Source of the DNA: a bacterium
GTDB taxonomy: Bacteria > Patescibacteriota > Minisyncoccia > 2-02-FULL-40-12 > IGHO2-01-FULL-4-A
DNA: 64,000 nucleotides
Direction of reading: 5' to 3'
Assembly (NCBI GenBank): GCA_030698885.1
Contig: JAUYLN010000020.1
Coordinates: 7,346-71,345 of the forward strand
Below are positions 5,102-54,427 of the stretch, piece by piece. Below the pieces are notes generated by a model. It was given only the letters and a program-made list of their open reading frames with translations. It was not told where the DNA came from and made no database searches. Position 1 is the first letter of the stretch, and every line of letters begins with the position of its first letter. A program made the position numbers and the translations under genes.

Positions 5102-5202
5102 GAAAACAAAAAAGTAAAAAGAATTTAATTTGCCGAGAGTAATATAGGCCAGATTTATTTTTTTACATAATTCTCTTTCGTAACCGGCATCCTTTAATGC
5201 GT

Positions 5203-5235
5203 CGGGACCCCGTTTATACGGGGTCTTTTTGTTTC
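5203..5235 (+). terminator. Rho-independent terminator (gggaccccg-tttata-cggggtc + T-run)
   Basis: Stem-loop followed by tttttgttt downstream of ORF 4661. Confidence 0.6.
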
Positions 5236-5357
5236 GGAGTACTATAGTTGACAAATATTAAAAAGGTTGCTATAAACCCAATGATGCCTATTTATATGAT
5301 TCTACTGAATTTTTTAAAAAATAGGCGTCGTAGCTGTTTAAAAAAAGGAGTATCAAT

Positions 5358-5624
5358 GTGGAAGAGGCCTTAGCCGTCAACAAAGAGTTTATAAGTTTGT
5401 TTATTTCCTTGATAGGATGGGGAGGGTTTATTATTGTTTGCTTGATTTTCAGGGATTTTATTGTGGCCGCTCTTTCTAATGCGGCGGCATGGTTTTTACT
5501 CCAAGCAGATAAAAAAACCCAAGAAAGGCTGATTGTACATCTTGTAAATAAGAAAATGACATTGCGAGAACTATACAGAGAGCTCAAAAATGATTTTGAA
5601 GAAAAAGAGGAGGTAGCTAAATGA
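5358..5624 (+). CDS. Small membrane protein (hypothetical)
   Basis: GTG start 7 nt after AAGGAG. Two hydrophobic segments. Its stop overlaps the next start (ATGA). Confidence 0.35.
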   Translation: MEEALAVNKEFISLFISLIGWGGFIIVCLIFRDFIVAALSNAAAWFLLQADKKTQERLIVHLVNKKMTLRELYRELKNDFEEKEEVAK

Positions 5625-5872
5625 CCTTTCTAAGAATAATTCAGCTTTTGGTTTTTGTCACGTTTATTTATTCCATGGTTACTCAAGTCGTGGTTCCTCT
5701 TTGGAATGGAACAAAGCTGTTTCCGACTTTAAGAACCAAGGAAGGAAGACTAAAATCAGAGTTGACTGACCTAAGGCAGAAAGAAGCCGAGGCCTTACTG
5801 GCTAGACGGGTTAGTGAAGAAAAAGAGAGACTTTCCAAACTTCAGAATGATAATACGGTTAACCAGGGATAG
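5621..5872 (+). CDS. Small membrane/coiled-coil protein (hypothetical)
   Basis: Translationally coupled to the ORF upstream; N-terminal TM segment plus a charged C-terminus. Confidence 0.35.
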   Translation: MTFLRIIQLLVFVTFIYSMVTQVVVPLWNGTKLFPTLRTKEGRLKSELTDLRQKEAEALLARRVSEEKERLSKLQNDNTVNQG

Positions 5873-5897
5873 ATAAAAGAAAAAAGGAGGAAAAACG

Positions 5898-11485: not shown

Positions 11486-11601
11486 ATCTACCAATTACTA
11501 ATTTTATACTAATATACCAATAGAATTTATTAGTATATTAGTGATTTAATTCGTAATTCGTAGATTAAGTATATTAGTGACTTTATTAGTAATTAGTAGA
11601 T
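11486..11601 (+). repeat. Intergenic nested-palindrome element, copy C (rplW->rplB). A 1.5-unit copy with the 3' arm duplicated.
   Basis: It contains ...ATTCGTAATTCGTAGAT and a second ...ATTAGTAATTAGTAGAT. Confidence 0.85.
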
Positions 11602-11604
11602 AAC

Positions 11605-12444
11605 ATGGCAAAACATTACAAACCATATACAGCATCAAGAAGGCACATGACGGGTTATGATTTTTCAGGCCTGTCAAAAGTAGAGCCGTTAAAAAAATTA
11701 ACAGCCGGTTTTAAGCGTTCAGTAGGCAGGAACAATCAGGGTAGAATTACTACCAGGCATAAGGGTGGAGGAGTAAAAAGACTTTATAGGGCAGTAGACT
11801 TTAATCAAAACAAACTAAATATTTTGGCAAAAGTTGCGACCATTGAGTATGACCCGAATCGTTCAGCCCGTATCGCCAGACTTCATTATGCTGATGGAGA
11901 AAAAAGATATATTCTTGCACCGGATAATTTGAAAGTAGGAGATGCCGTTGTTGTAGGCGAGAAGACTGCTATAAAAATAGGTAACAGGATGAAGCTGAAG
12001 AATATTCTCCAGGGAACGATGGTCCATAATATTGAGATAAGTCCCGGCAGGGGCGGGCAACTGGCCAAATCAGCCGGAGCCGGTGCTATGGTTATGGCCA
12101 AAGAAGGCAATCATGTTCAAATACAATTACCGTCAGGAGAATTAAGAATGTTTAATGGTGAAGCGATGGCTTCCGTGGGTCAGTTATCAAATATTGAGCA
12201 CAATACGATTGTTATAGGAAAGGCAGGGCGTTCCAGGTGGATGGGCAGAAGGCCGGCGGTCCGTGGCAGTGCCATGAATCCGGTGGACCATCCACATGGT
12301 GGAGGAGAGGGCAGACAGGGCATCGGACTTAAGTATCCGAAGACGCCGTGGGGCAAGCATGCATTGGGAGTTAAGACCAGAGATAAAAAGAAGAAGAGCA
12401 GTAAATTTATAATAAGAAGAAGAAAGAAGAAGGCGAGGAAATAA
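11605..12444 (+). CDS. rplB: 50S ribosomal protein L2
   Basis: L2 homology (…HPHGGGEGR…). Confidence 0.95.
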
Positions 12445-12474
12445 TAAGTATTATCAGGCAGTAAGCTTTTTTCG

Positions 12475-12537
12475 GGTACGACATATTCGCCTGCTGGCGA
12501 ATTGTCTGGATCTCGCACCGTCGTGCTGCGATACACC
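12475..12537. repeat. Repeat GGTACGACAtATTCGCCTGCTGGCGAATTGTC...CGTCGTGCTGCG. A second copy at 41816-41878 lies downstream of fusA.
   Basis: The two copies lie downstream of rplB and fusA respectively. Confidence 0.6.
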
Positions 12538-12649
12538 CTAAAAAAGCCTACTGCCTGATGGAAGTTTAACAATTTACTTAAGAGGAAAGAGTGGTAATGG
12601 AATAAGGTAGATGTAATTGTAAATACAATTACATCCCGCTATTATTCGT

Positions 12650-12690
12650 AGATTCCTGCCTGCCGGCAGGCAGGCGAATGCCATTTGTAT
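12650..12690. repeat. GC-rich palindrome CCTGCCTGCCGGCAGGCAGG, a REP-like family member
   Basis: Perfect 20-bp palindrome. The same motif occurs at 35958-35980 and variants at 31067-31086 and 28165-28200. Confidence 0.6.
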
Positions 12691-12727
12691 ATTGGCATCG
12701 CGTAGCGAGCAAAGCGAGCGAAAAAAA

Positions 12728-12970
12728 TCAGACCCGTGGGGCCTGATTACAGTAAGCTTTAAAAATTTTGATCAAAGATAAGACAATGACGATTCCTAAA
12801 AACATCTTAATGGCGCCGAGATTGAACCAAAATAGATCCACGTCGCAATACCATACTTTGGCCAGCCCATTATCGGTTTGGCATATGTTTTCCATAATAG
12901 TACGGAAGAGATTTTCAAATTTAAAATATAAAAATATACATACAGCAAAGATTATCAATGGTAGTCTCAT
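12728..12970 (-). CDS. Small two-TM hydrophobic protein encoded antisense inside the r-protein operon (cassette 1)
   Basis: Minus strand: SD GGGAGA then ATG. The product has two hydrophobic helices. Its ends are conserved with the cassette at 15304-15799. Confidence 0.4.
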   Translation of the reverse strand: MRLPLIIFAVCIFLYFKFENLFRTIMENICQTDNGLAKVWYCDVDLFWFNLGAIKMFLGIVIVLSLIKIFKAYCNQAPRV

Positions 12971-13050
12971 TATCATTCTCCCAGTTGTCAAAAATCAAAA
13001 CTGATGATATTCTATCACGACTAAGCTATGTGTCAAATTAGTGTTTTGGT

Positions 13051-13115
13051 CATTGGGATTTGGAGCTTATTTAGGAATTAGAAATTAGGATTTAGAAATT
13101 AGAAATTCAAAGTTT
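13051..13115. repeat. AT-rich tandem repeat (GGAATTAGAAATTAGGATTTAGAAATTAGAAATT) upstream of rpsS. A related block lies at 45947-46062.
   Basis: Direct repeats of (a)gaaattag/ggatttag are seen in the sequence. Confidence 0.5.
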
Positions 13116-13168
13116 TATTAAATAAGAATTGATAAATATATAAAAAACAGATATTAAACTAAACTAAC

Positions 13169-13513
13169 ATGAGCAGATCACTAAAGAAGGGTCCTTTCGT
13201 GGATCCGAAATTACTGAAAAAAATAGGCAAGTTAAGAGCCGGCGACAAGACGGTTATTAAAACGTGGTCGCGTGCGTCAACGATAACGCCTGAAATGGTG
13301 GGCTTTACCTTTGGCGTGCACAACGGCAGAATACATTTACCGGTATTTGTGACCGAAGATATGGTCGGCCATAAGCTTGGCGAATTTTCTTTAACAAGAA
13401 AATTCGTAAGGCATGGTGGCAAGATGCAGAAAGAAATAGAAATCGCAGCCAAGCAGAAAGAGATAGATGCCGCCAAAGCTGCCAAAGTTGAGCCGGAGGC
13501 ACCTAAGAAGTAA
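13169..13513 (+). CDS. rpsS: 30S ribosomal protein S19, with a Lys/Ala/Glu-rich C-terminal extension
   Basis: S19 core homology. Confidence 0.9.
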
Positions 13514-13594
13514 TCTACCAATTACGAATTACATAACTAATATACGAATAATAAATAGATTAGTATATTAGTGATTTTATTCGTAATTAGTAGA
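13514..13594 (+). repeat. Intergenic nested-palindrome element, copy D (rpsS->rplV)
   Basis: TCTACCAATTACGAATT...GATTAGTATATTAGTGATTTTATTCGTAATTAGTAGA. Confidence 0.85.
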
Positions 13595-13599
13595 AATTT

Positions 13600-14118
13600 A
13601 TGGAAGTCAAAGCAAGCTTAAACAATTTAAGAATAAATCCCAGAAAAGTAAGATTGGTGGCTAACCTCATAAGAGGGTTAGATTTTGAGCAGGCAAAAAA
13701 CCAGCTTAACTTTATGATAAAAAGATCATCAAGTCCTATCTCTAAACTTCTTGATTCCGCGGCCGCTAATGCTGAAAATAATTTTAATTTAATCAGGAGT
13801 AATCTTTATATAAAGGAAATAACCGTTAATGAGGGCCGTAAGCTTAAAAGATTTAAAGCTAAGGGATTCGGACGGGCAATGCCAATACAGAAAAAAACTT
13901 CGCATATAAATGTTGTATTTGATGAAAGGGTGCCCGGACTTAAGCAGGAAGTAAGAAGCAAAAAAGAGGAGCAAAAGAGCGAAGAAGCCATGGACCACAA
14001 TCATGAGCACAAAGAAGAACCGAAATTCAAGAAAGAGATTAAAACTGAATCAAGGCAAAAGCAGAGCGATTTATTCGGAGGATTAAAGAAGAGAATGTTT
14101 AGAAGAAAAAGCATTTAA
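13600..14118 (+). CDS. rplV: 50S ribosomal protein L22, with a ~60-aa charged C-terminal extension
   Basis: The N-terminal 110 aa match L22. Confidence 0.9.
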   Translation: MEVKASLNNLRINPRKVRLVANLIRGLDFEQAKNQLNFMIKRSSSPISKLLDSAAANAENNFNLIRSNLYIKEITVNEGRKLKRFKAKGFGRAMPIQKKTSHINVVFDERVPGLKQEVRSKKEEQKSEEAMDHNHEHKEEPKFKKEIKTESRQKQSDLFGGLKKRMFRRKSI

Positions 14119-14200
14119 TCTACCAATTACTAATTTTATACGAATATACCTATGAAAGGCTTGATTAGTATATTAGTGATTTAATTCGTAATTAGTAGAT
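14119..14200 (+). repeat. Intergenic nested-palindrome element, copy E (rplV->rpsC)
   Basis: TCTACCAATTACTAATTTTATACGAATATACC...GTATATTAGTGATTTAATTCGTAATTAGTAGAT. Confidence 0.85.
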
Positions 14201-14203
14201 AAC

Positions 14204-14830
14204 ATGGGACAAAAAATATCACCAACATCATTAAGGATAGGAATTAGCAAGGACTGGTTGTCCAAGTGGTTTGGCGGCCGCAGATATAAGGAGTTGCTTG
14301 CCGAAGATTTTAAAGTCAGAACGATGTTGGCTAAAAAATTAAAGAGCATGAGTGTTGACAGGGTAGAGATAGAAAGAAGCCCCGATACGTATGCTGTCAC
14401 AGTCTATACTGCCAGGCCGGGACTTATTATAGGAAGAAGCGGAACAGGCGTGGAAGATGTAAAAGAGCAGATTAAAAAGATACTTAGCCGTAAAACTAAC
14501 GTAAGATTAGATATCCAAGAATATAAAAACCCTGAAACCTCTGCCAAAATAATGGCAGAATCAATGTCGGAACAGATTGAAAGAAGACTTCCATTCAGAA
14601 GAATTATGAAGCAAACTTTAATAAAAATAGTAGCGAGCAGAGACGTTAAGGGAGCAAAGATACAGATGTCGGGAAGATTGAATGGCGCCGAAATTGCAAG
14701 AACGGAACATTTGGAGCAGGGTAGTTTGCCTTTACAGACTTTGCGGGCAGATGTTGATTATGCCAGGGTAACGGCTCACACCACTTATGGAACGATAGGC
14801 ATAAAAGTCTGGATATACCGGGTCTACTAA
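14204..14830 (+). CDS. rpsC: 30S ribosomal protein S3
   Basis: S3 KH-domain homology. Confidence 0.9.
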   Translation: MGQKISPTSLRIGISKDWLSKWFGGRRYKELLAEDFKVRTMLAKKLKSMSVDRVEIERSPDTYAVTVYTARPGLIIGRSGTGVEDVKEQIKKILSRKTNVRLDIQEYKNPETSAKIMAESMSEQIERRLPFRRIMKQTLIKIVASRDVKGAKIQMSGRLNGAEIARTEHLEQGSLPLQTLRADVDYARVTAHTTYGTIGIKVWIYRVY

Positions 14831-14897
14831 TTACTAATTTGATACGAATATACTAATCTATTTTTTTATTAGTATATTAGTGATTTTATTCGTAGAT
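14823..14897 (+). repeat. Intergenic nested-palindrome element, copy F (rpsC->rplP). Its 5' arm overlaps the last codons and stop of rpsC, and its 3' arm is shortened.
   Basis: ...GTCTACTAATTACTAAT... runs through the rpsC stop; it ends ...TTCGTAGAT-TATG. Confidence 0.7.
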
Positions 14898-14898
14898 T

Positions 14899-15303
14899 AT
14901 GTTACAACCGAAAAGAATAAAACATAGAAAAGTACACAAGAGAAGGATGCATACCGTCGCGAGAAGGGGCAGTTATTTGAGCTTTGGCAATTTCGGGTTA
15001 AAGGCTACTGAGCCGGCTTATATAAAATCATCCCAGATAGAGTCAGCAAGAAGAGCCATAGCCAAATCAATAAAACGCGGAGGTAAGGTATGGATAAGAA
15101 TATTTCCGGATAAACCGTTTACGGCCAAGGGCGCGGAAGTAGGCATGGGTGCCGGAGCCGGAAGTTTATCTCATTTCGTTGCGCCGATAGAAGCCGGAAG
15201 AATAGTATTTGAAATGGCCGGTGTTACGGAAGATGTTGCCAAGGAGGCATTGAGGTTGGCAGGACATAAACTGCCGGTGAAGACGAGGTTTATTAAAAAA
15301 TAG
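14899..15303 (+). CDS. rplP: 50S ribosomal protein L16
   Basis: L16 homology. Confidence 0.9.
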
Positions 15304-15424
15304 TCGCTCCGACCTATCTGGCTTTTGTTTGGGTCATGCGAATCAGGAAAAATAAGAAGAAGGTAATAAAAATCAGGCCGGTGGGGCCTGATTATAACAA
15401 GCTAGTTAGTTATGAATTTTCGGA

Positions 15425-15655
15425 TTATAGCTTTTTTCTCACGAATAAATATAGGAGGGTCATTATCACCATAGTTGAAAGATCAATAGCTAATACTTCA
15501 TTTGTATTTAGGTCACCATGGCCTATCCCATATCCGAATAGGCTGAAAACATCGAAATTATTTAAATTGGAATTAAATATATAGCAGTTTATGGTATGAA
15601 ATAATAAAAGTGTGGCCACTAAAAGAAATGATGTATCAAGATGTATCTTGGCCAT
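15425..15655 (-). CDS. Small two-TM hydrophobic protein encoded antisense inside the r-protein operon (cassette 2)
   Basis: Minus strand: ...TTGACAACTGGGGAGGTTTGT-ATG, with SD GGAGG 5 nt before the ATG. It lies downstream of a conserved promoter-like block and is followed by the aatcaggccggtggggcctgatt hairpin. Confidence 0.4.
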   Translation of the reverse strand: MAKIHLDTSFLLVATLLLFHTINCYIFNSNLNNFDVFSLFGYGIGHGDLNTNEVLAIDLSTMVIMTLLYLFVRKKL

Positions 15656-15720
15656 ACAAACCTCCCCAGTTGTCAAAAATTAAAACTAATGCTATAGTAT
15701 CACAACTATGAAAAGTCATA

Positions 15721-15795
15721 AAGCTCTAAGGCCGTATAGCTATAAAGCTTAAAAAAGCTCTATGGCTCTACAGCTTTATGGCTTTAAGACCATAA
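15721..15795. repeat. Short tandem-repeat block (AAGCTCTAAGGCCGTATAGC...AAGCTCTATGGCTCTACAGCTTTATGGC) immediately upstream of rpmC
   Basis: The motif family (GCCGTAAAGC / AAGCTCTATGGC) is shared with 16237-16305 and 24551-24622. Confidence 0.6.
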
Positions 15796-15799
15796 AAAT

Positions 15800-15985
15800 A
15801 TGAAGTACAGTGAATTACAAAATAAGGGTGCAGAAGAGTTAAATAAAATGCTGGAAGAGCTGAAGATTAAGCTTGGAGAAATGAAGTTTCAGGTTGCCAG
15901 CAATGCCCTCAAAAATACCAACGAAATGGGCGCTGTAAAAAAAGATATTGCCCGAATTTTAACTATAATGCAGCAAACCGAATAA
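15800..15985 (+). CDS. rpmC: 50S ribosomal protein L29
   Basis: 61-aa L29-like protein positioned between rplP and rpsQ. Confidence 0.8.
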
Positions 15986-15986
15986 T

Positions 15987-16235
15987 ATGGAAAATCAAAA
16001 TAAAAAAAATAGGGTTTTGAAGGGTGTAGTAGTATCGGATAAGATGCAGAAGACTGCCGTTGTTGAGGTCTCAAGACTTATTAAGCATCCGAAATACAAA
16101 AAATATCATAAGGTCAGTAAAAGATTTAAGGCTCAAAATGATGACAATAAATATAAGACGGGAGAGAGGGTGTTAATTCAGGAAACAAGACCGATATCTA
16201 AAGATAAAAGATGGATTGTTATTGCTAAGCAATAA
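15987..16235 (+). CDS. rpsQ: 30S ribosomal protein S17
   Basis: S17 OB-fold homology; the ATG overlaps the rpmC stop. Confidence 0.9.
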
Positions 16236-16236
16236 A

Positions 16237-16305
16237 GCGGTAGCCCTAAAGCCGTAAGCCGTAAAGCTTTAAAGCTCTATGGCCATATGGCTCTATGGCT
16301 TTATA
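16237..16305. repeat. Short tandem-repeat block (GCCGTAAAGC / AAGCTCTATGGC family) upstream of rplN
   Basis: agccctaaagccgtaagccgtaaagctttaaagctctatggccatatggctctatggc. Confidence 0.6.
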
Positions 16306-16307
16306 TC

Positions 16308-16673
16308 TTGATTCAGTTAAGAAGTATAGTAAATGTAGCTGATAATAGCGGAGCCAAAAGAGTTGGCGTTTTTAAGGTTTTAGGAGGTTCCAGAAAAAGA
16401 TATGCCAGAATAGGTGATATTGTGGTTGTGTCAGTAAAAGAAGCTGAGCCAGGAAAACAGGTTAAGAAAAAAGAAGTGGTTAAGGCCGTGGTTGTCAGAC
16501 AGAGAAGTAATTTCAGGAGAAAAGACGGAAGCTATATCAGATTTGATGAGAATGCGGTTGTTATATTGGACGGAATGAATCCCAAGGGTGGACGTGTTTT
16601 CGGTCCGATACCAAGAGAAATAAAAGAGAAAGGTTTTGATCAGATTGCAAGCTTAGCCCAGGAAATAATATAA
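16308..16673 (+). CDS. rplN: 50S ribosomal protein L14. A TTG start is inferred from the conserved M-I-Q N-terminus; the track ORF begins at 16287 inside the tandem repeat.
   Basis: ...[16 protein letters not shown]... L14 motif. Confidence 0.8.
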
Positions 16674-16763
16674 ATCTACCAATTACGAATTAGATACTAA
16701 TATACAAACAAGAAATAAAGAAATAGATTGGTATATTGGTGACCTGATTAGTAATTAGTAGGT
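16674..16763 (+). repeat. Intergenic nested-palindrome element, copy G (rplN->rplX)
   Basis: ATCTACCAATTACGAATTAGATACTAATATAC...GGTATATTGGTGACCTGATTAGTAATTAGTAGGT. Confidence 0.85.
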
Positions 16764-17072: not shown

Positions 17073-17153
17073 GTTTACCAATTACGAATTAGATACTAAT
17101 ATACGAATCGGAGTTCATTGGTATATTGGTGACCTGATTAGTAATTAGTAGAT
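17073..17153 (+). repeat. Intergenic nested-palindrome element, copy H (rplX->rplE)
   Basis: GTTTACCAATTACGAATTAGATACTAATATACG...GTATATTGGTGACCTGATTAGTAATTAGTAGAT. Confidence 0.85.
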
Positions 17154-23607: not shown

Positions 23608-24570
23608 ATGAGCAAAAATATGAAAAAGCAAATATTTCATCTTTATTTCAATGATGATTTTGACGGTGTAAGTTCGGCGGCCTTGTTTTCTTATTTTGTG
23701 AACAAAAAATGGCCCGGAAAATATAAGTTCAAGTATAATTTGGCGGTTTTTAAGCCGGGATATCAGAAGGAGTGGATTGGTAAAAAACTACCGGAGCCTT
23801 CAGCTGTTTTTGATTTTCGTTATCATCCGGATGCGGGGTGGTGGTTTGATCATCATGAGTCGAGTTTTATTTACGAATCACAAAAGAAAAATTTTAAAAA
23901 TACTGCCCAAAAAGCTTGGGACAAAAACCGTAAATCATGTTGTAGCTTAATTTTAAATCATCTGTCGGGCTATTTTAATTTTGAGTTTCCGGGTTATTTA
24001 AAAGAGCTTGCCAAAGAAGCAGATATTATTGATTCTGCCGGTTATAAATCTGCTAAGGAAGCCCTGGAGCCCAAAGAATCGGCTATAAAATTGAGCAACA
24101 TACTTCCGCTGGGCTTCAGCACTAAAGATGCAAAGGCGTGGATTGAAAGCTTAGCCTCTGGTCCGATGTCTGAAGTGATGAAATTAGATTTAACGAAGAA
24201 GAGAATGTTAAAAGCTGAAAGAATCATAAGTAAGGCCATTGAAGAAGCAAAAAATTTTTCAAAAGTCATCGGCGACACAGTCTTTTTGCCCGGGGGCAGG
24301 ATATTCAGCAGATTTGCCGTTTATTTAGTATATCCAAAAGCATATTATGCAGTGATAGTAAGCGATGTGGGGGAGTATTACCACATCGGGGCAGGCAAGA
24401 ATCCTTGGCTTGAAGTCAGGGACCAGAAAGATATTTCTGAAGTAATGAAAAAATTCGGCGGAGGAGGCCATGTCAATGTCGGTGCGACAGAAGTTAAGAC
24501 AAAGAAAGAAGCTTTACAAATTGCAGAAAAAGTGGTAGAAATATTGAACAGTAAAGCCGTAAAGCTGTAA
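23608..24570 (+). CDS. DHH/DHHA1-family phosphoesterase (NrnA-like)
   Basis: DGVSSAAL..., FDHHES (the DHH motif) and GGGGH (the DHHA1 GGGH motif). Confidence 0.55.
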   Translation: MSKNMKKQIFHLYFNDDFDGVSSAALFSYFVNKKWPGKYKFKYNLAVFKPGYQKEWIGKKLPEPSAVFDFRYHPDAGWWFDHHESSFIYESQKKNFKNTAQKAWDKNRKSCCSLILNHLSGYFNFEFPGYLKELAKEADIIDSAGYKSAKEALEPKESAIKLSNILPLGFSTKDAKAWIESLASGPMSEVMKLDLTKKRMLKAERIISKAIEEAKNFSKVIGDTVFLPGGRIFSRFAVYLVYPKAYYAVIVSDVGEYYHIGAGKNPWLEVRDQKDISEVMKKFGGGGHVNVGATEVKTKKEALQIAEKVVEILNSKAVKL

Positions 24571-24622
24571 GCCGTAAAGCCGTAAAGCTCTATGGCCGTA
24601 AAGCTCTATGGTCTCATAGCTT
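24551..24622. repeat. Short tandem-repeat block (GCCGTAAAGC / AAGCTCTATGGC family) upstream of the sugar-transferase gene
   Basis: gtaaagccgtaaagctgtaagccgtaaagccgtaaagctctatggccgtaaagctctatggtctcatagc. Confidence 0.6.
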
Positions 24623-26006
24623 GAGGCGTTCTGATTTAATCTTCAACGTAATATTGGTCCCGGTTGATTTTGCTATGCTGGCTCTTGCCGGCATAACTAC
24701 CTATCTTCTGCGCACAGAGATACTGACGGCTTTCAGGCCGGTTCTTTTTGAATTTAACCTGCCCTTTGAAAAGTATATTTTCCTGGCGCTTGGCGTGGCG
24801 GGTTTTTTTGTGGTTGTTTATGCTATATCCGGGCTGTATAACATCGGAGGCCCCAGGAATATTCTGGAAGAGTTTTTCAAGGTAGTTATTGCCTCGTCTG
24901 CGAGCATAATGACTATAATCGTTTATATATTCTTAAGGCAGGAACTTTTTGATTCCAGATTTCTAGTTCTTGGCGCATGGTTTTTTTCTATCATTTTTGT
25001 TTCACTGGGAAGGCTTATCGTGAGGCAGGTTCAGAAGAGTCTCGTTTCTAAACTTGATTACGGAATTCATAAAGTGCTTGTCATTGGCAATGACGATATA
25101 TCTTTCAAAATAATTAACGGCATGAATGACAACCACTCTCTGGGCTATAGGGTGGTTAAACAGCTTGTGAATCCGGAAGTGTCAGAAGTTAAGCTGGCTA
25201 TAGGCAATCCGGGCATAGACGAAGTGATTCTGGCTAATCCTAACTATCCTCAAGATAAAGTAGTTGAGATTGTAGATTTTTGCCATGAGAACCATCTTGT
25301 TTTCAAATTTGTTCCTAATATTTATCAGACTTTAACCGCAAATGCTTCAGCCGAAGCATTTGCCGGGGTGCCCTTAATTGAGCTTAGGAGGACTGCTCTA
25401 GACGGCTGGGGAAGCGTAGTTAAAAGACTGGTAGATGTTTTTGCTTCTGCGCTGGGCTTGATAATTCTATCGCCTTTGTTTTTGATTATAGCTTTTGCCA
25501 TTAAGTGGGAAACAGCCGGTCCGGTTTTTGTAAGACTTGAAAGAGTCAGCAGGAACAAAAGGTTTCAGTTGCTAAAGTTCAGGTCAATGATAAATAATGC
25601 GGATAAGTATAAGGAGATGCTCAAAGAAATGAATGAGCGTTCAGACGGCCCGCTTTTCAAAATGCGTTTTGATCCGCGCGTGACAAGAATTGGAAGATTC
25701 ATAAGGCGCACCAGAATAGATGAACTGCCTCAACTTTGGAATGTTTTGAGGGGGGAGATATCATTGGTTGGGCCAAGACCTCATGAGCCGTCAGAAATAG
25801 ATAAATACCAGAAGCATCACCGGAAAGTTCTGGCCTTAAAAGCCGGGGCTACGGGACTGGCCCAGATATCGGGCAGTTCTGATTTACCATTTGAAAAAGA
25901 AGTTGCCTTGGACACTCTTTATATTGAAAAATGGTCTCTATCTCAAGATATTAAAATTATCATTAGAACTGCCATCAAAATGTTCCGTGACCACTCGGCG
26001 GTTTGA
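24621..26006 (+). CDS. Polyprenyl-phosphate sugar phosphotransferase (WbaP/WcaJ 'bacterial sugar transferase' family). The start is uncertain.
   Basis: The C-terminal domain ...ISLVGPRPHEP...DTLYIEKWSLSQDIKII... with N-terminal TM helices. Confidence 0.75.
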   Translation: MRRSDLIFNVILVPVDFAMLALAGITTYLLRTEILTAFRPVLFEFNLPFEKYIFLALGVAGFFVVVYAISGLYNIGGPRNILEEFFKVVIASSASIMTIIVYIFLRQELFDSRFLVLGAWFFSIIFVSLGRLIVRQVQKSLVSKLDYGIHKVLVIGNDDISFKIINGMNDNHSLGYRVVKQLVNPEVSEVKLAIGNPGIDEVILANPNYPQDKVVEIVDFCHENHLVFKFVPNIYQTLTANASAEAFAGVPLIELRRTALDGWGSVVKRLVDVFASALGLIILSPLFLIIAFAIKWETAGPVFVRLERVSRNKRFQLLKFRSMINNADKYKEMLKEMNERSDGPLFKMRFDPRVTRIGRFIRRTRIDELPQLWNVLRGEISLVGPRPHEPSEIDKYQKHHRKVLALKAGATGLAQISGSSDLPFEKEVALDTLYIEKWSLSQDIKIIIRTAIKMFRDHSAV

Positions 26007-26108
26007 GATTACCTCTTGAGGTAAATTAAGCGTTTTTTAAAACGGCTCAACGATAACTATCGTTGAGCCGTTTTGATTTTTAATGTAAGTATATGCTAGT
26101 CTAACGAA

Positions 26109-34706: not shown

Positions 34707-34893
34707 TACTCGGCCAGCCATAGTTTTTAATTTTCGTTTCACTCGCGGGTAAATAATATTGTAATTTTCTCATTTTCCTAGATAAAAAACTGGTTCCCGT
34801 TCCGACCAGTTTTTTATTACGTAAAATCTCAAAAATTACAATTTATTTACGGCCACTCGCTCAAATAAATTAAAAACTTTGGCTGGCCTCGTT
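34707..34893. mobile_element. MITE-like element: ~60-bp terminal inverted repeats (34710-34768 / 34833-34891) flanking a terminator-like core hairpin (34784-34816)
   Basis: TIR-R is the reverse complement of TIR-L with few mismatches. A solo TIR copy lies at 41921-41980. Confidence 0.6.
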
Positions 34894-35251
34894 CTAGTTT
34901 TACGGCTATATAATTGCCTCAGTTATTTTTTTGCCGATTTCCGAAGGTGGTGAGGTGGGGGGATAGGATAGCCCCCGCCGTTTTTAGCGGGAGCCACTAT
35001 ACAAACGGCTCAACGATAATTATCGTTGAGCCGTTTGTGGTTAACCGAGGGCCGCTCTCGTTAATTTTTACGTATAGTCTACAGCTTACTGTTTATAGCT
35101 GTTATACTATTAATAAAAGGCGGGCCTGCCTACCGAAGTTTTATACGAAGGCGGGGAGAATTAGAAGTAGAACAAAAGAAACTATCGTCAAGACAGCGAT
35201 AATTATTCCGAACCAGCGCACGAATTTTTTATTGCCGATAACCATAGATGA

Positions 35252-38625: not shown

Positions 38626-38706
38626 TCTACCAATTACGAATTTTGTACTAATATACTAATAGAATTTAAATTCGTATATTAGTGATTTAATTAGTAATTA
38701 GTAGAT
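38626..38706 (+). repeat. Intergenic nested-palindrome element, copy N (upstream of rpsL)
   Basis: TCTACCAATTACGAATTTTGTACTAATATAC...GTATATTAGTGATTTAATTAGTAATTAGTAGAT. Confidence 0.85.
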
Positions 38707-41787: not shown

Positions 41788-41815
41788 TCGCTCGTGCATA
41801 CTATCAACTTTTAAA

Positions 41816-41878
41816 GGTACGACACATCCGCCTGCTGGCGGATTGTCTTTTGTTCGCGCCGTCGCGCTCCACAGAACC
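41816..41878. repeat. Second copy of the GGTACGACA...CGCCTGCTGGCG... repeat (first copy at 12475-12537)
   Basis: Near-identical to the copy downstream of rplB. Confidence 0.6.
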
Positions 41879-41920
41879 TTTAAAAATTAATAGTATGCCA
41901 CTCGCTTGGGGTGGAGGGAT

Positions 41921-41980
41921 AAAATTACAATTTATTTACAACCGCTCGCTCAAATAAATTAAAAACTATGGCTGGCCTCG
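41921..41980. repeat. Solo copy of the MITE terminal repeat (AAAATTACAATTTATTTACAACCGCTCGCTCAAATAAATTAAAAACTATGGCTGGCCTCG)
   Basis: ~90% identical to TIR-R at 34833-34891. Confidence 0.6.
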
Positions 41981-42018
41981 CTTGGGCTGGGTAAGGCCTT
42001 ATACTGATTTTGCTATTT

Positions 42019-42066
42019 GCCCGCCTAAATTTTCACAAGGAAAGTTTGGCGGGCCTTTTGTTTTTT
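42019..42066 (+). terminator. Rho-independent terminator after fusA (gcccgcc...ggcgggc + T-run)
   Basis: 7-bp GC stem with a long loop and ccttttgtttttt tail. Confidence 0.6.
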
Positions 42067-42165
42067 ATAACTAGTTTATACAAAGGGCATCTTTGTAATT
42101 ACAAAGATGCCCTTTGTTGTGCCTGATACTGGATACTTAATACTTAATACGATATAATAATTTTA

Positions 42166-45923: not shown

Positions 45924-46062
45924 TTGACATTGTGTCAATTAATTAAAATCCTAAGTCCAAAATCCTAAATTCTAAATAAAATTGAAATTATAAATGGTTT
46001 GAAAATTGGGATTTTAGATATTGGGATTTGTTTAGAAATTAGATATTAGGATTTAGAAATTT
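45919..46062. repeat. Palindrome TAATTAATTGACA-TTG-TGTCAATTAATTA at the pgk stop, followed by a long imperfect inverted repeat of the AGGATTTAGAAATT family
   Basis: Left arm aatcctaagtccaaaatcctaaattctaaat; right arm atttagaaattagatattaggatttagaaattt. Confidence 0.55.
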
Positions 46063-47937: not shown

Positions 47938-48588
47938 TTAGATGCGTTCGGCGATTATGATGAGACGCTGTTTAGATGTGAAAAGAGGGGAGCAGGTGAT
48001 TAAGGTGAGCCGGGGTGAGTCGGTGGGATTTAGAACGGAAAGGTCGGTAGGTTCAACGACTTTGCTTTCTATGACCCGGTATCGGTAAGTTGCTCCCTGC
48101 CATGAAAGCTCAAACTCTTCGCCCACCGTCAGTTTGTCCAGATTATAAAAAGTATTGCCGATTGGGGGTAGGAATTTAAAGCGATGGCCGAAAATGACAG
48201 TATTGCCTCCCTTGTCGGGAGTTGAAGTATGCGGGAACATCCATCCGCCCTTGGCGAGGGTTCTGACGCTATCGCTTAAGAATATGGGCATATTAATTCC
48301 AATTTGAGGTATAGAGAGGCGATTATTAATATTCTTAAGTTCATAGTCCGGCACTGGAGTGGCCGTGTTTGACGCGGGAGTCGGAGCTATTTCTTGGCCG
48401 GGTACTACGAACTGGTCGTTTATGGTTATGGCAGAGTTTATCTCCTGTTCTGAAAGCGTATCCAAAAAAGCATAGTCATCCAAAAAGCCAAACGAAAGCA
48501 GGGGAATACCGATTCCAAGCAGAGACAAGGTTATTAGCACGAACCCCAGTTTTTTATATATTTTATGTTGGTCTGTATTTTTAGGCAC
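47938..48588 (-). CDS. Sortase-family transpeptidase (GTG start)
   Basis: An N-terminal TM anchor and ...RLTLITCSP..., the TLxTC active-site motif with the catalytic Cys. Confidence 0.75.
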   Translation of the reverse strand: MPKNTDQHKIYKKLGFVLITLSLLGIGIPLLSFGFLDDYAFLDTLSEQEINSAITINDQFVVPGQEIAPTPASNTATPVPDYELKNINNRLSIPQIGINMPIFLSDSVRTLAKGGWMFPHTSTPDKGGNTVIFGHRFKFLPPIGNTFYNLDKLTVGEEFELSWQGATYRYRVIESKVVEPTDLSVLNPTDSPRLTLITCSPLFTSKQRLIIIAERI

Positions 48589-48595
48589 TTATTAG

Positions 48596-48624
48596 AGTAT
48601 TAAGTAGTAAGTATAAAGTATAAG
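48596..48624. repeat. Variant of the pilin-associated repeat (AGTATTAAGTAGTAAGTATAAAGTATAAG) directly upstream of the sortase start
   Basis: It shares AGTATTAAG...GTAGTAAGTAT with the repeats at 54428, 55990, 56487, 58163 and 58664. Confidence 0.55.
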
Positions 48625-48650
48625 AACGTAAAAACTAAATCTATTATAAC

Positions 48651-48679
48651 AAATAAAGAGCGCATTGCGCTCTTTATTT
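48651..48679 (-). terminator. Terminator hairpin aaataaagagcgc-attg-gcgctctttattt after the surface-protein gene (minus strand)
   Basis: Perfect stem with flanking T/A runs. Confidence 0.6.
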
Positions 48680-48691
48680 GTTGAACCTGTT

Positions 48692-48718
48692 CCTTAATAC
48701 TTAACCCTTACTACTTAT
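48692..48718. repeat. Inverted variant of the pilin-associated repeat (CCTTAATACTTAACCCTTACTACTTAT) overlapping the surface-protein stop codon
   Basis: Reverse complement: ATAAGTAGTAAGGGTTAAGTATTAAGG. Confidence 0.55.
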
Positions 48719-49962
48719 TTATTCAGCCACACATTTGCCTTCTTTGGCATAAGCTCGTAGCCGAACATTAATGAGAGCAAGCCGGTCATAAAGAATGAAA
48801 TCATAAGCGATAAGAATATTCTGTCAAAACCGGTTAATGATACATCCGGAAGCTGGTCCATCTCGCCAAGTACAGCCGGGGTCGGAGTTGCTGGCGGGGT
48901 TGCTGTTGGGGTGGGAGATACGGTTTCAGCTCCAAGGACTGCCGAAGAGTTGGTTGTCGGGAAGAATCCGCCTCCACCTCCACCGCCTCCACCACCTCCA
49001 TTGGGCGTCGGGGTTGGGGTAGGAGTTGCAGATGGGGTAGGGGTTGGAGTGGGAGATGTCTGTGTGTTATTTAAACCAAAGTGTGCATTTATGGTTTGAT
49101 GGCTTGTTACGGTAAAAGTACAAACCGGATTTGTAGGATCGCTGACGCAGGGGCCAGAAGTCCAAGAGCCATCAAAGTTGGATCCTTCGTCAGGAGTGGC
49201 GTTCAAAGTAACTTCTGTTCCTTCTTCATATGTCTCTGAACAGTCGCTTTCCTCTGAATTGCTGTCGCAATTTATTAATTCATCTTCGTCATTAATAACG
49301 CCATCACCATCTCCGCTAGTTGTAATATCTACTGTGTAAGTTGGCGTCGGGGTTGGGGTAGGGGTATCACTTGGAGTTGGTGATGGAGTCGGAGTGTCAG
49401 AAGGAGTAGGGCTTGGGGTCGGTGTGTCTGAGGGGCTGGGGGTAGGAGTCGGTGTATTACTTGGGGCTGGCGTCGGGGTTGGTGTCGGGTCTACATCAAC
49501 GCAGATAGTTACAGAAGAAACTGCGTCTGCCTGATTGTCCTGTCCTGGTACTGTTTGATGATAAATACGAGCTGTAATAGTAAAAGGACCATCCGTAAGA
49601 TAGGTGTGAGTTGCACCGAAAGAACGTGTTTCTGTTCCGTGGTCTGGGTTTTGATTTAAACTAAATGTACTTGCCTCAGTTTGGTCATTAGTATTGCCAT
49701 CTCCCCAATCTATTTGTACGTGATATTGGCCAAGTTGACCCTGGGGGGCTGTTGCAGTTGCCGTTCCCGAGACTGTTACTTCACCACCGATGTTGCAATC
49801 GTCACCGCTAATAGGACTAGTGATATTAACTGAAGTTGCCGCAAATACACTAAACGGTATGGCCTGCAATGTCATGGACATTACGAATGTTAATATGAAA
49901 AAACTGGCCAAAAACTTTGGCCTACGACCTGTTGAGAAAAATCCTATATTGCTATTTTTCAT
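48715..49962 (-). CDS. Secreted cell-surface protein with Pro/Thr linker repeats, a Gly11 run and a C-terminal hydrophobic anchor plus KK tail. It is a candidate sortase substrate.
   Basis: Signal peptide; (TPTPSPSDTP)n; GGGGGGGGGGG; C-terminus ...LPDVSLTG...hydrophobic...PKK. Confidence 0.6.
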   Translation of the reverse strand: MKNSNIGFFSTGRRPKFLASFFILTFVMSMTLQAIPFSVFAATSVNITSPISGDDCNIGGEVTVSGTATATAPQGQLGQYHVQIDWGDGNTNDQTEASTFSLNQNPDHGTETRSFGATHTYLTDGPFTITARIYHQTVPGQDNQADAVSSVTICVDVDPTPTPTPAPSNTPTPTPSPSDTPTPSPTPSDTPTPSPTPSDTPTPTPTPTYTVDITTSGDGDGVINDEDELINCDSNSEESDCSETYEEGTEVTLNATPDEGSNFDGSWTSGPCVSDPTNPVCTFTVTSHQTINAHFGLNNTQTSPTPTPTPSATPTPTPTPNGGGGGGGGGGGFFPTTNSSAVLGAETVSPTPTATPPATPTPAVLGEMDQLPDVSLTGFDRIFLSLMISFFMTGLLSLMFGYELMPKKANVWLNK

Positions 49963-53207: not shown

Positions 53208-54425
53208 ATGACCAAAACTAAGTCAGAAAAAGAAATAAAAAAGGGGGCAGAAATATCAGTTATCACACTGGTGGACTCTTTGATTGAAGATGCCCACCAG
53301 GTAAATGCTTCCGATATTCATATTGATGCCGGCGAAAAATCGGCCAGGGTCAGGTTCAGGGTTGATGGCGTTTTACAGGATATGTTTGAATTGCCATTGG
53401 GCCTGATGCCTGAAATTATTTCCAGAATAAAAATATTGACCAACCTAAGAACTGATGAGCACAAGGTTCCGCAGGACGGTCGTTTCAGGCTAGTCATTGA
53501 AAAAATCGGACCGGTTGATGTCAGGGTGGCCATTACCCCGACTTATCACGGTGAAAGCGCCGTTTTGCGTTTATTGTCTTCCGACCAGTCCGGCCAATAT
53601 AGTCTTGAGTCTTTGGGTTTTGAAGAGCATGACAGAGAAAAAATATTGAAAGCCGTTCAGAATCCTTACGGAATGATTTTGGTTACCGGACCGACCGGCT
53701 CAGGTAAAACAACCACTCTTTATACGATATTAAAAATTTTAAATACAAATGATGTTTCAATCATTACGATTGAAGACCCGATTGAATATGCCATTGATAA
53801 TATAAAGCAGGTTCCGGTCAGTGCCAGAACCGGTCTAACCTTTGCCAGCGGTCTGCGCTCCATGTTGAGGCAGGACCCGGACATTATCATGGTGGGTGAG
53901 ATTAGGGATGAGGACACTGCCGGCCTTGCGGTCAATACCGCTTTGACCGGTCACCTTTTACTTTCAACATTGCATACAAATGATGCGGCTACGACTTTGC
54001 CCAGATTGTTAGACATGAAGATAGAGCCATATTTGGCTTCGTCCACTGTTAACGTTGCCATCGGCCAGAGATTGGTCAGAAGGATCTGCGAAGGCTGTAA
54101 GGTTCAGAAAAATATTACCGAAACTGAGTACGAGAGCCTTGTAGAGGTTTTGGGTAAAAACATAGTCGGATCAAGTAAAAAGTTTTATAAAGGTTCAGGT
54201 TGCGATAAATGCAATCTGACCGGTTATCGCGGAAGATTAGTAATAGACGAAGTTATGGTCATTGATGACGAGATAAGGGAGGCTATCTTAAAAAAAGGTT
54301 CTTCAAGCGATATAAAAAATATTGCAATAAAGAATGGCATGACCACGATGATAGAAGACGGAATTAGAAAAGCCGCGAAAGGAATGACGACGATACAGGA
54401 AGTGCTGAGAGTGATACATGAATAA
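53208..54425 (+). CDS. Type IV pilus/type II secretion assembly ATPase (PilB/GspE family, short N-terminus)
   Basis: Walker A GPTGSGKTTTLY, Asp/His boxes and a tetracysteine motif CEGC...CDKC. Start set at MTKTKSEK (the track ORF starts at 53121 inside the inverted repeats). Confidence 0.8.
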   Translation: MTKTKSEKEIKKGAEISVITLVDSLIEDAHQVNASDIHIDAGEKSARVRFRVDGVLQDMFELPLGLMPEIISRIKILTNLRTDEHKVPQDGRFRLVIEKIGPVDVRVAITPTYHGESAVLRLLSSDQSGQYSLESLGFEEHDREKILKAVQNPYGMILVTGPTGSGKTTTLYTILKILNTNDVSIITIEDPIEYAIDNIKQVPVSARTGLTFASGLRSMLRQDPDIIMVGEIRDEDTAGLAVNTALTGHLLLSTLHTNDAATTLPRLLDMKIEPYLASSTVNVAIGQRLVRRICEGCKVQKNITETEYESLVEVLGKNIVGSSKKFYKGSGCDKCNLTGYRGRLVIDEVMVIDDEIREAILKKGSSSDIKNIAIKNGMTTMIEDGIRKAAKGMTTIQEVLRVIHE

Positions 54426-54427
54426 TT

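Follow-up and report, generated by a model that had tools for sequence, protein, structure and literature searches.

Two minus-strand inserts with shared ends and predicted small membrane-protein ORFs in a bacterial ribosomal-protein gene cluster

Phage morons, exemplified by the HK97 gene 15 element (Cumby et al. 2012, PMC3594210), are stretches of extra DNA within a strongly conserved gene array that are not present in relatives. They have their own promoter, their own stem-loop terminator and a GC content unlike that of the neighbouring genes, and frequently encode a small membrane protein. Symmetric bidirectional promoters (Warman et al., bioRxiv 10.1101/2020.01.31.928960; NAR 2026, PMC12825309) are characterized by overlapping -10 elements with positions 2 and 6 paired and by a +1 A opposite the -18 T of the other strand; their start sites lie 18 bp apart, and in Escherichia coli no other arrangement of divergent starts is as frequent. 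Putative mobile promoters (Matus-Garcia et al. 2012, PMC3488235) are defined as upstream sequences of 50-100 nt, at least 80% identical, that precede non-homologous genes in one genome. Finally, type I toxin-antitoxin loci (hok/sok, ldr/rdl, ibs/sib, zor/orz, tisB/istR; Fozo et al. 2010, PMC2887945) encode small hydrophobic proteins (a size limit of ≤70 aa was used) with polar or basic C-termini, are located in long intergenic regions, and occur as duplicates that are alike outside the ORF.

The locus described here lies in the S10-type ribosomal-protein (r-protein) gene cluster of an uncultivated bacterium, probably of CPR type, within the analyzed window (the whole stretch of 64,000 nucleotides). 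The rplB-rpsS gap (12445-13168, 724 nt) and the rplP-rpmC gap (15304-15799, 496 nt) each hold one minus-strand unit (cassettes 1 and 2, respectively), which confirms the two inserts noticed in an earlier sequence-only reading of this DNA. That reading expected near-zero spacing at such junctions. This is true of relatives but not of this genome, in which the r-protein junctions are mostly 66-119 nt long and filled with AT-rich palindromes; the two gaps are oversized in any case, at 4-7 times the size of the neighbouring r-protein spacers. Logan contigs from an independent assembly (run SRR13727534) exactly match window positions 11529-13105 and 14177-16703, covering both inserts and the adjoining r-protein genes with 100% identity. 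Relatives have neither insert at the orthologous positions, as a survey of 80 related loci shows. There the rplB-rpsS gap is ≤123 nt, bar three unrelated larger ones (242, 705 and 1753 nt), while rplP and rpmC are at most 156 nt apart, and no remnant of the cassettes was detected at either the DNA or the protein level. Judging from this comparison, the inserts are lineage-specific.

Similarity between the two inserts is confined to their ends. The left motif AATCAGRCCSGTGGGGCCTGATT (12726-12748 and 15371-15393) and the right motif CCCAGTTGTCAAAAATYAAAACT (12980-13002 and 15665-15687) each match twice in the window, compared with 0.00 matches expected from shuffled sequences. The full shared blocks comprise 36 nt on the left (family D20) and 44 nt on the right (family D13), with 86% identity in each case. 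The ORF bodies between them show neither protein nor DNA similarity (z = 0), as the sequence-only reading had proposed in describing conserved ends around mutually non-homologous cargo. Its hairpin at the left end was also recovered, and both copies score as minus-strand intrinsic terminators. In the left block of cassette 1 (12719-12758, minus strand), the terminator consists of a hairpin at 12726-12748 (-16 kcal/mol, z -3.8) followed by a U-run at 12719-12725; the block takes in a conserved AGCUU..UAAUCAG lead-in, and the stop codon of the upstream ORF lies inside the hairpin. In the left block of cassette 2 (15366-15403, minus strand), the terminator has its hairpin at 15371-15393 (-14 kcal/mol, z -4.3), and then UUUUUAUUA. 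The T-run follows the hairpin on the minus strand only, which points to a minus-strand terminator that would serve no purpose on the plus strand.

Each unit carries one minus-strand ORF: ORF1 (12728-12970, 80 aa) and ORF2 (15425-15655, 76 aa). Their ATG codons follow Shine-Dalgarno (SD) sequences, GGGAG at 12982-12978 (7 nt ahead) for ORF1 and GGGGAGG at 15667-15661 (5 nt ahead) for ORF2, as the earlier reading had noted; SD-like motifs precede only ~9 of the 59 plus-strand genes of the window. The predicted leaders, whose start sites were deduced from the -10 positions, are both 32 nt long (12971-13002 for ORF1 and 15656-15687 for ORF2, minus strand) and unstructured (z +0.8 and +1.5, respectively); they are less structured than shuffled sequences, so the SD should be exposed. 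With the ATG fixed, the frame was open in 0.98% (ORF1) and 0.42% (ORF2) of dinucleotide shuffles, and T occupies 47% of second codon positions in both. The GC content of the ORFs is 31-35%, compared with 43% for genes. By hydropathy and charge, each product has two hydrophobic stretches joined by an acidic loop and is basic at both ends, and AlphaFold2 (AF2) models likewise gave two long helices each, in keeping with the two transmembrane helices originally predicted. The ORF1 product is predicted to be a membrane hairpin of two helices (3-32 and 44-75, pLDDT 72) whose loop contains Cys30 and Cys42 and whose charge distribution suggests an N-in/C-in orientation, and that of ORF2 is a predicted two-helix membrane hairpin with a basic C-terminus, RKKL (helices 3-32 and 52-75, pLDDT 60). 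A single homologue of ORF1 was found in another metagenome (P0004, 82 aa; 38% identity, E 4e-6), which retains C30, C42 and LFW. ORF2 is an orphan, with no homologue among 5.8 billion proteins. Both ORFs look real, and neither product matched toxin or defence families or models.

The shared right end had been read as supplying a promoter-like block on the minus strand. A promoter is indeed predicted there, but not with the hexamers originally named (TTGTGA-15-TTTAAT); in copy 1 the better candidate is TTGACA-16-TGaTAGAAT, an 11/12 match in the promoter scan. Moreover, a symmetric promoter of the extended -10 type, facing in both directions, is probably the better reading of the right end. In cassette 1 (12980-13036, both strands), the plus arm would comprise a -35 TTGTCA (12985-12990), TG (13005-6) and -10 TATTCT (13008-13013), with a predicted start at 13020, and the minus arm a -35 TTGACA (13036-13031), TG (13017-16) and -10 TAGAAT (13014-13009), with a predicted start at 13002. 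In cassette 2 (15665-15720, both strands), the corresponding plus-arm elements are TTGTCA (15670-15675), TG (15690-1) and TATAGT (15693-15698), predicted start 15705; the minus arm has TG (15702-01) and -10 TACTAT (15699-15694), predicted start 15687, and its -35 is weak and not recognisable, the element having been read from the sequence and not listed by the promoter scan. The predicted plus-strand promoter, TTGTCA-17-TGnTATnnT, is present in both copies (9/12 plus TG in copy 1, 10/12 plus TG in copy 2). In this arrangement the -10 hexamers of opposite strands overlap with positions 2 and 6 paired, TGnTAnnnT can be read on either strand, the predicted divergent starts are 18 bp apart, and the predicted +1 bases are both A, each facing T at -18 of the opposite promoter. 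Under this model, every one of the six differences within the 44-nt block is neutral: they affect the spacer, the n of TGn, positions 3-5 of the -10 and one base upstream of TG. It should be noted that the promoters, start sites and terminators are consensus predictions, and that promoter-like hits are not enriched in this AT-rich region (29, compared with 31.2 in shuffles).

Owing to the symmetric -10, the 44-nt block would also act as a plus-strand promoter facing rpsS or rpmC. The predicted rpsS leader, which would start at the two-way promoter and end at the ATG of rpsS (13020-13168, plus strand; extent tentative), holds a TTAGAAA-type repeat at 13060-13100 (family D17). The predicted rpmC leader, which likewise runs to the ATG (15705-15799, plus strand), is mostly a palindromic 8-nt-repeat hairpin at 15712-15794 (family D5; a self-inverted match with sub-threshold hairpin-type hits).

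Each insert probably represents an autonomous, lineage-specific minus-strand unit for a small two-helix membrane protein, with a two-way promoter; we put the probability of this reading at slightly above one half (about 0.55). Minus-strand transcription would start at the extended -10 sigma-70-type promoter, cross the unstructured, U-rich 32-nt leader with its strong SD and then the ORF, and halt at the stable hairpin and U-run, which would prevent antisense transcripts from entering rplB or rplP. We infer that either arm may fire, that the plus arm may feed the downstream r-protein genes (rpsS or rpmC), and that the ORF products may insert into the membrane. Since the block holds both the minus-strand leader with its SD and the plus-strand -35 with its spacer, such double duty would explain its 86% conservation despite the unrelated ORFs. 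Given only two copies, however, conserved ends with unrelated cargo could also reflect recent copying or gene conversion of the ends and not a dual functional constraint. Repeated regulatory-looking modules also occur in other spacers of this genome (families D15 and D19), so the shared ends may be a genome-wide habit and not a property of these units. The promoter scan, folding, hydropathy and AF2 models agree on the antisense promoter, SD, small hydrophobic ORF and hairpin, and so bear out this part of the sequence-only reading.

The same reading likened the units to type I toxin loci or, alternatively, had antisense transcription modulate operon read-through. On the first view, the products would be membrane toxins whose mRNAs are neutralised by the fully complementary read-through transcript of the essential operon; on the second, convergent transcription would tune that read-through. 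The ORFs encode small, hydrophobic products whose C-termini are basic, and they lie exactly antisense to an operon that should be transcribed heavily; the plus strand has no terminator between rplB or rplP and the cassettes, which makes read-through antisense RNA plausible. The duplicated units are alike only in their non-coding ends, and type I loci likewise show similarity outside the ORF (PMC2887945); when the full-length mRNAs are folded, their 5' ends pair with sequence in the 3' part of the ORF (z -2.3 and -1.8). However, these pairings use different partner sites in each copy, local 5'UTR structure is below that of shuffles with the SD exposed, and products of 76-80 aa with two helices depart from the pattern of ≤70 aa and a single transmembrane segment (PMC2887945). 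There is also no conserved promoter aiming a dedicated antisense sRNA into the ORF, complementarity between the divergent leader and the small mRNA is no higher than for shuffled leaders, and toxin and defence models gave 0 matches. The analogy was not upheld, and we regard a module of this kind, toxin-like or regulatory, as unlikely. It is just as doubtful that only the plus strand matters, in which case the blocks would serve, together with a structural hairpin, as internal promoters dividing the cluster into sub-operons, and the ORFs would be unselected by-products of T-rich spacer DNA. The promoter scan finds the plus arm in both copies, a similar promoter, TTGCCAAAAAT...TGaTATTAT, lies ahead of an ordinary gene on the plus strand at 52955, and the ORFs are near-orphans whose GC content is closer to that of non-coding DNA than to that of genes. 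Against this stand frames that run without a stop from an SD-preceded ATG as far as the terminator (p of roughly 0.01 and 0.004), the enrichment of T at codon position 2, product charges that obey the positive-inside rule, the ORF1 homologue with its conserved Cys, the minus-strand-only T-run, and a strong SD conserved in a genome mostly without SDs.

Less probable still are mobile or exchangeable cassettes, in which the fixed ends would be recombination or copying sites (mobile promoter, MITE-like or integron-like) for swapping small ORFs. Conserved ends with unrelated cargo, relatives without inserts, a GC content off from that of genes, a genome rich in other propagated intergenic repeats and the documented reuse of promoter segments ahead of non-homologous genes (PMC3488235) are consistent with this idea. 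Nevertheless, neither terminal inverted repeats and target-site duplications nor a nearby recombinase or transposase were found, there are only two copies in the 64 kb, and promoter and terminator account fully for the ends. Searches of 185,579 species genomes and of JGI metagenomes, viral contigs, plasmids and phages gave no match to the end motifs, an outcome that the sequence-only reading, in proposing a search of the whole genome and relatives, had itself named as counting against it. An assembly artefact or chance resemblance might be suspected in a metagenome-derived, repeat-rich genome, but the independent Logan contigs span both inserts and their flanks, chance alone would give 0 motif matches, and this explanation is highly improbable.

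When compared with the described systems, the preferred minus-strand units share with type I loci the traits listed above, including duplication, and an antisense RNA partner is conceivable; they differ in size and helix number, in having no dedicated antitoxin sRNA, in their exposed SD and unstructured leader, and in having no homology to known toxin families. The right block meets the identity level of mobile promoters ahead of non-homologous genes in one genome, but its length of 44 nt, or 57 nt if the weak -35 region is counted, falls short of the size definition or only just reaches it, a matching terminator module is also common to both inserts, and no mobilising element is evident. Compared with the promoters of Warman et al., the block has the same -10 overlap, start spacing and +1/-18 pairing, but it is a prediction only, in a CPR-looking bacterium, with the TGn extension on both arms too, and it is duplicated as a whole at two loci with different genes on either side. 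Reading the shared right end as such a symmetric bidirectional promoter is the new point of this analysis. All the moron features given at the outset have counterparts in the inserts, which differ in lying in a cellular ribosomal-protein operon and not in a phage genome, in being antisense to the host operon, in having no phage or plasmid match, and in forming two copies with common regulatory ends and different cargo. The units thus resemble phage morons sited in a chromosomal operon, an arrangement that is unusual though not revolutionary.

The host locus of both cassettes, the minus-strand units in the rplB-rpsS gap (cassette 1) and the rplP-rpmC gap (cassette 2), is the chromosomal r-protein cluster. 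In the window this plus-strand cluster comprises tuf, rpsJ, rplC, rplD, rplW, rplB, rpsS, rplV, rpsC, rplP, rpmC, rpsQ and rplN, and it continues beyond rplN to rpsE, rplO and secY. The S5 gene is followed directly by the L15 gene, with L30 absent between them, an adjacency commonly seen in bacteria of the Candidate Phyla Radiation (CPR). The closest metagenomic relatives (RpsC 60–73% identical) include groundwater contigs. Since the S10/spc r-protein cluster is among the most conserved bacterial gene orders, and since genomes of the CPR type are compact and small, antisense genes with transcription of their own are unexpected there.

The sequence-only reading had described both gaps as oversized, and this was confirmed by their lengths: 724 nt between rplB and rpsS (12445–13168) and 496 nt between rplP and rpmC (15304–15799). 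Its expectation of near-zero spacers holds for related loci and fails for this genome, where most r-protein junctions measure 66–119 nt. Logan assemblies of run SRR13727534 are identical to the window over 11529–13105 and 14177–16703. Since these independent contigs span the inserts together with the flanking r-protein genes, the inserts are not an assembly artefact.

The two gaps were compared with those of 80 loci encoding RpsC relatives (45–73% identity). Among the loci spanning the respective junction, the rplB-rpsS spacer was 1–123 nt long in all but three and the rplP-rpmC spacer never exceeded 156 nt. No trace of the cassettes was detected in the 80 loci by blastn, nhmmer or tblastn. 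Orthologous loci in relatives, with small gaps in all but three cases, carry no cassette DNA, as expected if the inserts are extra. The three enlarged rplB-rpsS gaps belong to distant relatives (RpsC 48–53% identical): 242 nt in locus L029 (1737–1978), 705 nt of internal repeats in L065 (4637–5341), and 1753 nt in L050 (3554–5306), where the minus strand contains an unrelated ORF of 218 aa without a Pfam match. Judging from these gaps, the rplB-rpsS junction may be a recurrent insertion site.

The end motifs of the cassettes (AATCAGNCCNGTGGGGCCTGATT and CCCAGTTGTCAAAAAT in searchable form) were sought elsewhere, as the sequence-only reading had proposed, in collections that do not include the genome of the window. 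Among 185,579 species genomes, the right-end motif gave three chance matches, with flanks that were not conserved, and it gave none in JGI metagenomes or viral contigs. The hairpin motif of the left end was likewise not found in viral contigs, and a distant blastn search of plasmid and phage records with the cassette DNA returned no match. The other long spacers of the window (5102–5897, 41788–42165 and 60866–61451) contain no comparable unit. The absence of the inserts from relatives, and of their end motifs from these collections, indicates that the inserts are lineage-specific additions.

Both cassettes are bounded by the same two blocks, each 86% identical between the copies: a 36-nt left block around the hairpin AATCAGRCCSGTGGGGCCTGATT (12726–12748 and 15371–15393) and a 44-nt right block starting with CCCAGTTGTCAAAAATYAAAACT (12980–13023 and 15665–15708). 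Each block occurs exactly twice in the window, against 0.00 occurrences expected from shuffles, which bears out the conserved ends noticed earlier. The enclosed ORFs share no detectable similarity at the protein or DNA level (DNA z = 0), again as proposed, and the end-to-end nhmmer match between the cassettes is carried by their ends. On sequence comparison, "conserved ends, unrelated cargo" is an accurate description of the two units. A MITE or IS origin is not supported, as neither cassette is bracketed by terminal inverted repeats or target-site duplications.

At the left end, the hairpins fold with −16 kcal/mol (z −3.8) in copy 1 and −14 kcal/mol (z −4.3) in copy 2. Of the two differences between the copies, one converts a G·U pair into G-C and the other alters the loop. 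On the minus strand the hairpin is followed 3' by UUUUUUU in copy 1 and by UUUUUAUUA in copy 2, while no T-run follows it on the plus strand, and a terminator scan called both hairpins minus-strand intrinsic terminators. Since the T-run is present on the minus strand only, the left end is predicted to act as a one-way stop for minus-strand transcription. This predicted stop sits just before rplB or rplP, as minus-strand transcription approaches these genes. A search against Rfam yielded no family at the gathering threshold, and hairpin-type miRNA noise only at E<1.

The cargo consists of ORF1 (80 aa; minus strand, 12728..12970) in cassette 1 and ORF2 (76 aa; minus strand, 15425..15655) in cassette 2. 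As the sequence-only reading had stated, each is preceded by a strong Shine-Dalgarno sequence (SD), GGGAG 7 nt 5' of the ATG in ORF1 and GGGGAGG 5 nt 5' of the ATG in ORF2, while an SD-like motif precedes only ~9 of the 59 plus-strand genes of the window. A frame open from the fixed ATG to the observed length arose in 0.98% (ORF1) and 0.42% (ORF2) of dinucleotide-preserving shuffles. In both ORFs, T occupies 47% of second codon positions, which is the periodic signature of a hydrophobic coding sequence. Their GC content is 35% (ORF1) and 31% (ORF2), compared to ∼43% for genes and 41% for the window. Both putative proteins have a hydrophobic segment towards either end, with basic residues at the N- and C-termini and acidic ones in the loop; by the positive-inside rule, this charge layout is consistent with an N-in/C-in hairpin. 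AlphaFold modelled two long helices in each, at residues 3–32 and 44–75 of ORF1 (pLDDT 72) and 3–32 and 52–75 of ORF2 (pLDDT 60), in agreement with the two transmembrane helices predicted previously.

A full HMMER scan of 1.84 billion representatives identified a single real relative of ORF1, the 82-aa protein P0004 (encoded on a 623-nt contig, ENA ERZ27296333; 36–38% identity over residues 1–69, E 4e-6), in which Cys30, Cys42, the LFW motif and the general layout are conserved. A repetitive 869-aa protein matched in the same scan was dismissed as low-complexity. When ORF1, ORF2 and an ORF1+P0004 profile were used in word-indexed protein searches, P0004 was the only match besides the queries, and ORF2 had no relative. 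Nothing significant was obtained with ORF1, ORF2 or P0004 against Pfam, PHROGs, NCBIfam, PADLOC or PDB sequences. Several lines of evidence, namely the open frames, the T content of the codons, the charge layout, the helices and the ORF1 homologue, make ORF1 and ORF2 look like genes.

The right end had been read earlier as a minus-strand promoter, TTGTGA-15-TTTAAT. These hexamers are not the best fit, and a promoter scan preferred other elements on both strands. On the minus strand, copy 1 contains TTGACA-16-TAGAAT with an upstream TG (11/12 match, 13036..13009); the homologous element of copy 2 is TGaTACTAT (15702..15694), with only a weak −35. On the plus strand, TTGTCA-17-TATTCT (12985–13013) was found in copy 1 and TTGTCA-17-TATAGT (15670–15698) in copy 2, both with TG. 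The −10 elements of the two strands overlap: TATTCT (13008–13013, plus) over TAGAAT (13014..13009, minus) in copy 1, and TATAGT (15693–15698, plus) over TACTAT (15699..15694, minus) in copy 2. With the opposing hexamers shifted by 1 base, position 2 on either strand is paired with position 6 on the complementary one. This pairing is the commonest arrangement of bacterial bidirectional promoters, in which the start sites lie 18 bp apart with each +1 opposite −18 (Warman and colleagues, bioRxiv 10.1101/2020.01.31.928960). In copy 1 the start sites are predicted at 13002 on the minus strand and 13020 on the plus strand, in copy 2 at 15687 on the minus strand and 15705 on the plus strand. The spacing is 18 bp in both cassettes, and at every start an A faces the T at −18 of the opposing promoter.

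All six substitutions within the 44-nt block, as read from the sequence, fall at positions that are neutral in this model: two in the spacer, one at the n of the plus-strand TGn, two at −10 positions 3–5, and one just upstream of the minus-strand TG. The two spacer substitutions preserve a small palindrome (ATCAnnnnTGAT -> ATTAnnnnTAAT). Folding of the 32-nt leader on the minus strand is weaker than that of shuffled sequences (z +0.8 in copy 1, +1.5 in copy 2), and RNA structure therefore does not explain the conservation of this leader. A second role, as −35 element and spacer of the predicted plus-strand promoter, does account for it. Promoter-like matches as such show no enrichment in the AT-rich region (29, compared to 31.2 expected), and the argument for a two-way promoter rests mainly on the conservation pattern. 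We conclude that the 44-nt block is most likely a two-way promoter, the left arm of which would express the small protein, while the right arm would point at rpsS or rpmC. The right block recurs weakly at 52950; this third copy was set aside as a plus-strand promoter of the ordinary kind, located ahead of a pilus ATPase-like gene, with no small ORF and no shared terminator.

Small hydrophobic proteins encoded antisense to a highly expressed operon had also been likened to type I toxins. Such toxins are defined as proteins of ≤70 aa, usually <60 aa, with one predicted transmembrane helix (Fozo et al., PMC2887945), and the analogy is not supported, as the 80- and 76-aa ORFs, each with two hydrophobic segments, lie outside these limits. 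No conserved plus-strand promoter leads into either ORF, leaving none to make an antisense sRNA, and in a test of complementarity in trans, pairing between the divergent plus-strand leader and the small mRNA did not exceed that of shuffled leaders. No significant match to toxin families was obtained in Pfam, NCBIfam, PHROGs or PADLOC. Type I toxin mRNAs are also structured so as to sequester the SD, and on this point the predicted folds are mixed. Taken locally, the 5'UTR shows no structure (z +0.8 and +1.5), which would leave the SD exposed; in whole-mRNA folds the 5' end pairs with the distal part of the ORF (z −2.3 and −1.8), at partner sites that differ between the copies. The sole possible antisense partner of the small mRNA would be read-through from rplB or rplP, which is plausible, given that neither cassette has a predicted plus-strand terminator upstream of it. 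Taken together, we consider the type I toxin reading of the two units unlikely.

In a more far-reaching proposal, only part of a modular system spanning the whole genome of this CPR-like lineage would be visible in the two units, and a fixed "socket" of two-way promoter, leader and terminator carries interchangeable small membrane-protein ORFs antisense in essential, highly transcribed operons. The operon transcript would then serve as antisense antidote or regulator, in a type I-like addiction or coupling module without a dedicated antitoxin gene, and the plus arm would compensate the host operon for being interrupted. We hold this to be unlikely. The refined reading that we prefer on sequence grounds is that of two putative moron-like antisense small-membrane-protein genes, lineage-specific, with a common symmetric bidirectional promoter and intrinsic terminator.

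The window contains several other repeats. An ~80-nt AT-rich palindrome (TCTACCAATTAC...GTAATTAGTAGA; −11 to −27 kcal/mol) is present in ∼17 copies between 10267 and 46639 (e.g., 13514–13594, 14119–14199, 17074–17152 and 38626–38705). The copies start right after a stop codon and end 3–8 nt before the next ATG, and in the majority of r-protein junctions such a copy stands where an SD would be. Within the window, 18 arm motifs lie on the plus strand and 16 on the minus strand; the motif is essentially absent from the 80 loci of relatives. Most copies have one arm position that is a C/A mismatch in plus-strand RNA and would be a G·U pair if the minus strand were transcribed. Tandem 8-nt repeats (AAAGCTCT / ATGGCTCT / AAGCCGTA; 15712–15794, 16234–16319 and 24547–24632) are self-complementary and form, as predicted, a second class of pre-start-codon hairpin, just 5' of the ATG of rpmC, rplN and the gene at 24621. 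The left part of the rplB-rpsS gap, outside the cassette, is a palindromic element of ∼100–107 bp with ∼25-bp arms and a GC-richer structured core (12453–12559), found again at 41795–41895. The two copies lie directly 3' of the stop codons of rplB and of a 715-aa gene ending at 41787, and their cores are 73% identical with apparent compensatory changes (ATTCGCC/GGCGAAT and ATCCGCC/GGCGGAT). A TTAGAAATTAGGATTTAGAAATT-type repeat precedes rpsS (13060–13100) and an RNase H-like gene at 46095 (46021–46061), and similar repeats occur in related loci L008, L011, L034 and L058. Two further families, regulatory in appearance, are duplicated at unrelated loci: D19, a perfect-palindrome, terminator-like 34-mer (26040–26073 and 35003–35036, 97% identity), and D15, a 60-nt block (34832–34891 and 41921–41980, 93% identity) in two spacers. 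Judging by these duplications, the propagation of intergenic modules appears to be a general feature of the genome.

Some genes of the window also have unusual upstream regions or neighbors. Those at 22020, 28237 and 42166 have a TATAAT-like hexamer 2–7 nt 5' of the start codon and no SD, and their mRNAs may be leaderless. Five genes at 54425–58745 share an ~87-nt block comprising upstream AAGTATTAAGGGATAAGTAGTAAGTATTAAGC and first codons ATGAATACAAAAA...AATCAGNGGGG; from the first codons and the PilB-like ATPase gene at 53121 only, these genes resemble a family of paralogues in which the N-terminus is conserved. On the minus strand, which has few clear genes in the window, a sortase-domain gene adjoins one for a 415-aa protein with an InlB B-repeat-like domain (47938–49962), the latter gene containing a G-rich repeat region with a 12-nt period (48866–49490).

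The two units add two predicted, unannotated small membrane proteins from an uncultivated lineage. If the two-way promoter is real, they would show how an essential operon tolerates insertion, by means of an outward promoter that serves the downstream genes and a terminator that protects the upstream ones. The right block would then illustrate how a single short sequence can be constrained in two ways in nature, as leader and SD on one strand and as −35 and spacer on the other. The practical significance is modest unless further copies or a phenotype are found.

Among known elements, the predicted overlapping −10 elements, with positions 2 and 6 base-paired, resemble the symmetric bidirectional promoters of Warman and colleagues. 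The right block also recalls putative mobile promoters, upstream segments of 50–100 nt that are at least 80% identical and precede non-homologous genes in one genome (PMC3488235). It likewise precedes genes that are non-homologous, on both strands, with 86% identity over 44 nt and weaker identity over ∼57 nt, and its length is at or below the threshold for these elements. The best analogy for the units as a whole is the phage moron, an addition between the genes of a conserved array that is equipped with a promoter and a terminator of its own, differs in GC content and often encodes a small membrane protein (PMC3594210). Like morons, both inserts are extra DNA in a gene order conserved in related genomes, have their own promoter and factor-independent terminator by consensus prediction, and have a GC content (31–35%) lower than that of the surrounding genes. 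Unlike morons, they lie antisense in a cellular operon, and their motifs were not found in viral contigs or phage records. The units are a new variant that combines known kinds of element and stands out by its position in the r-protein cluster and by its predicted dual-use promoter block.
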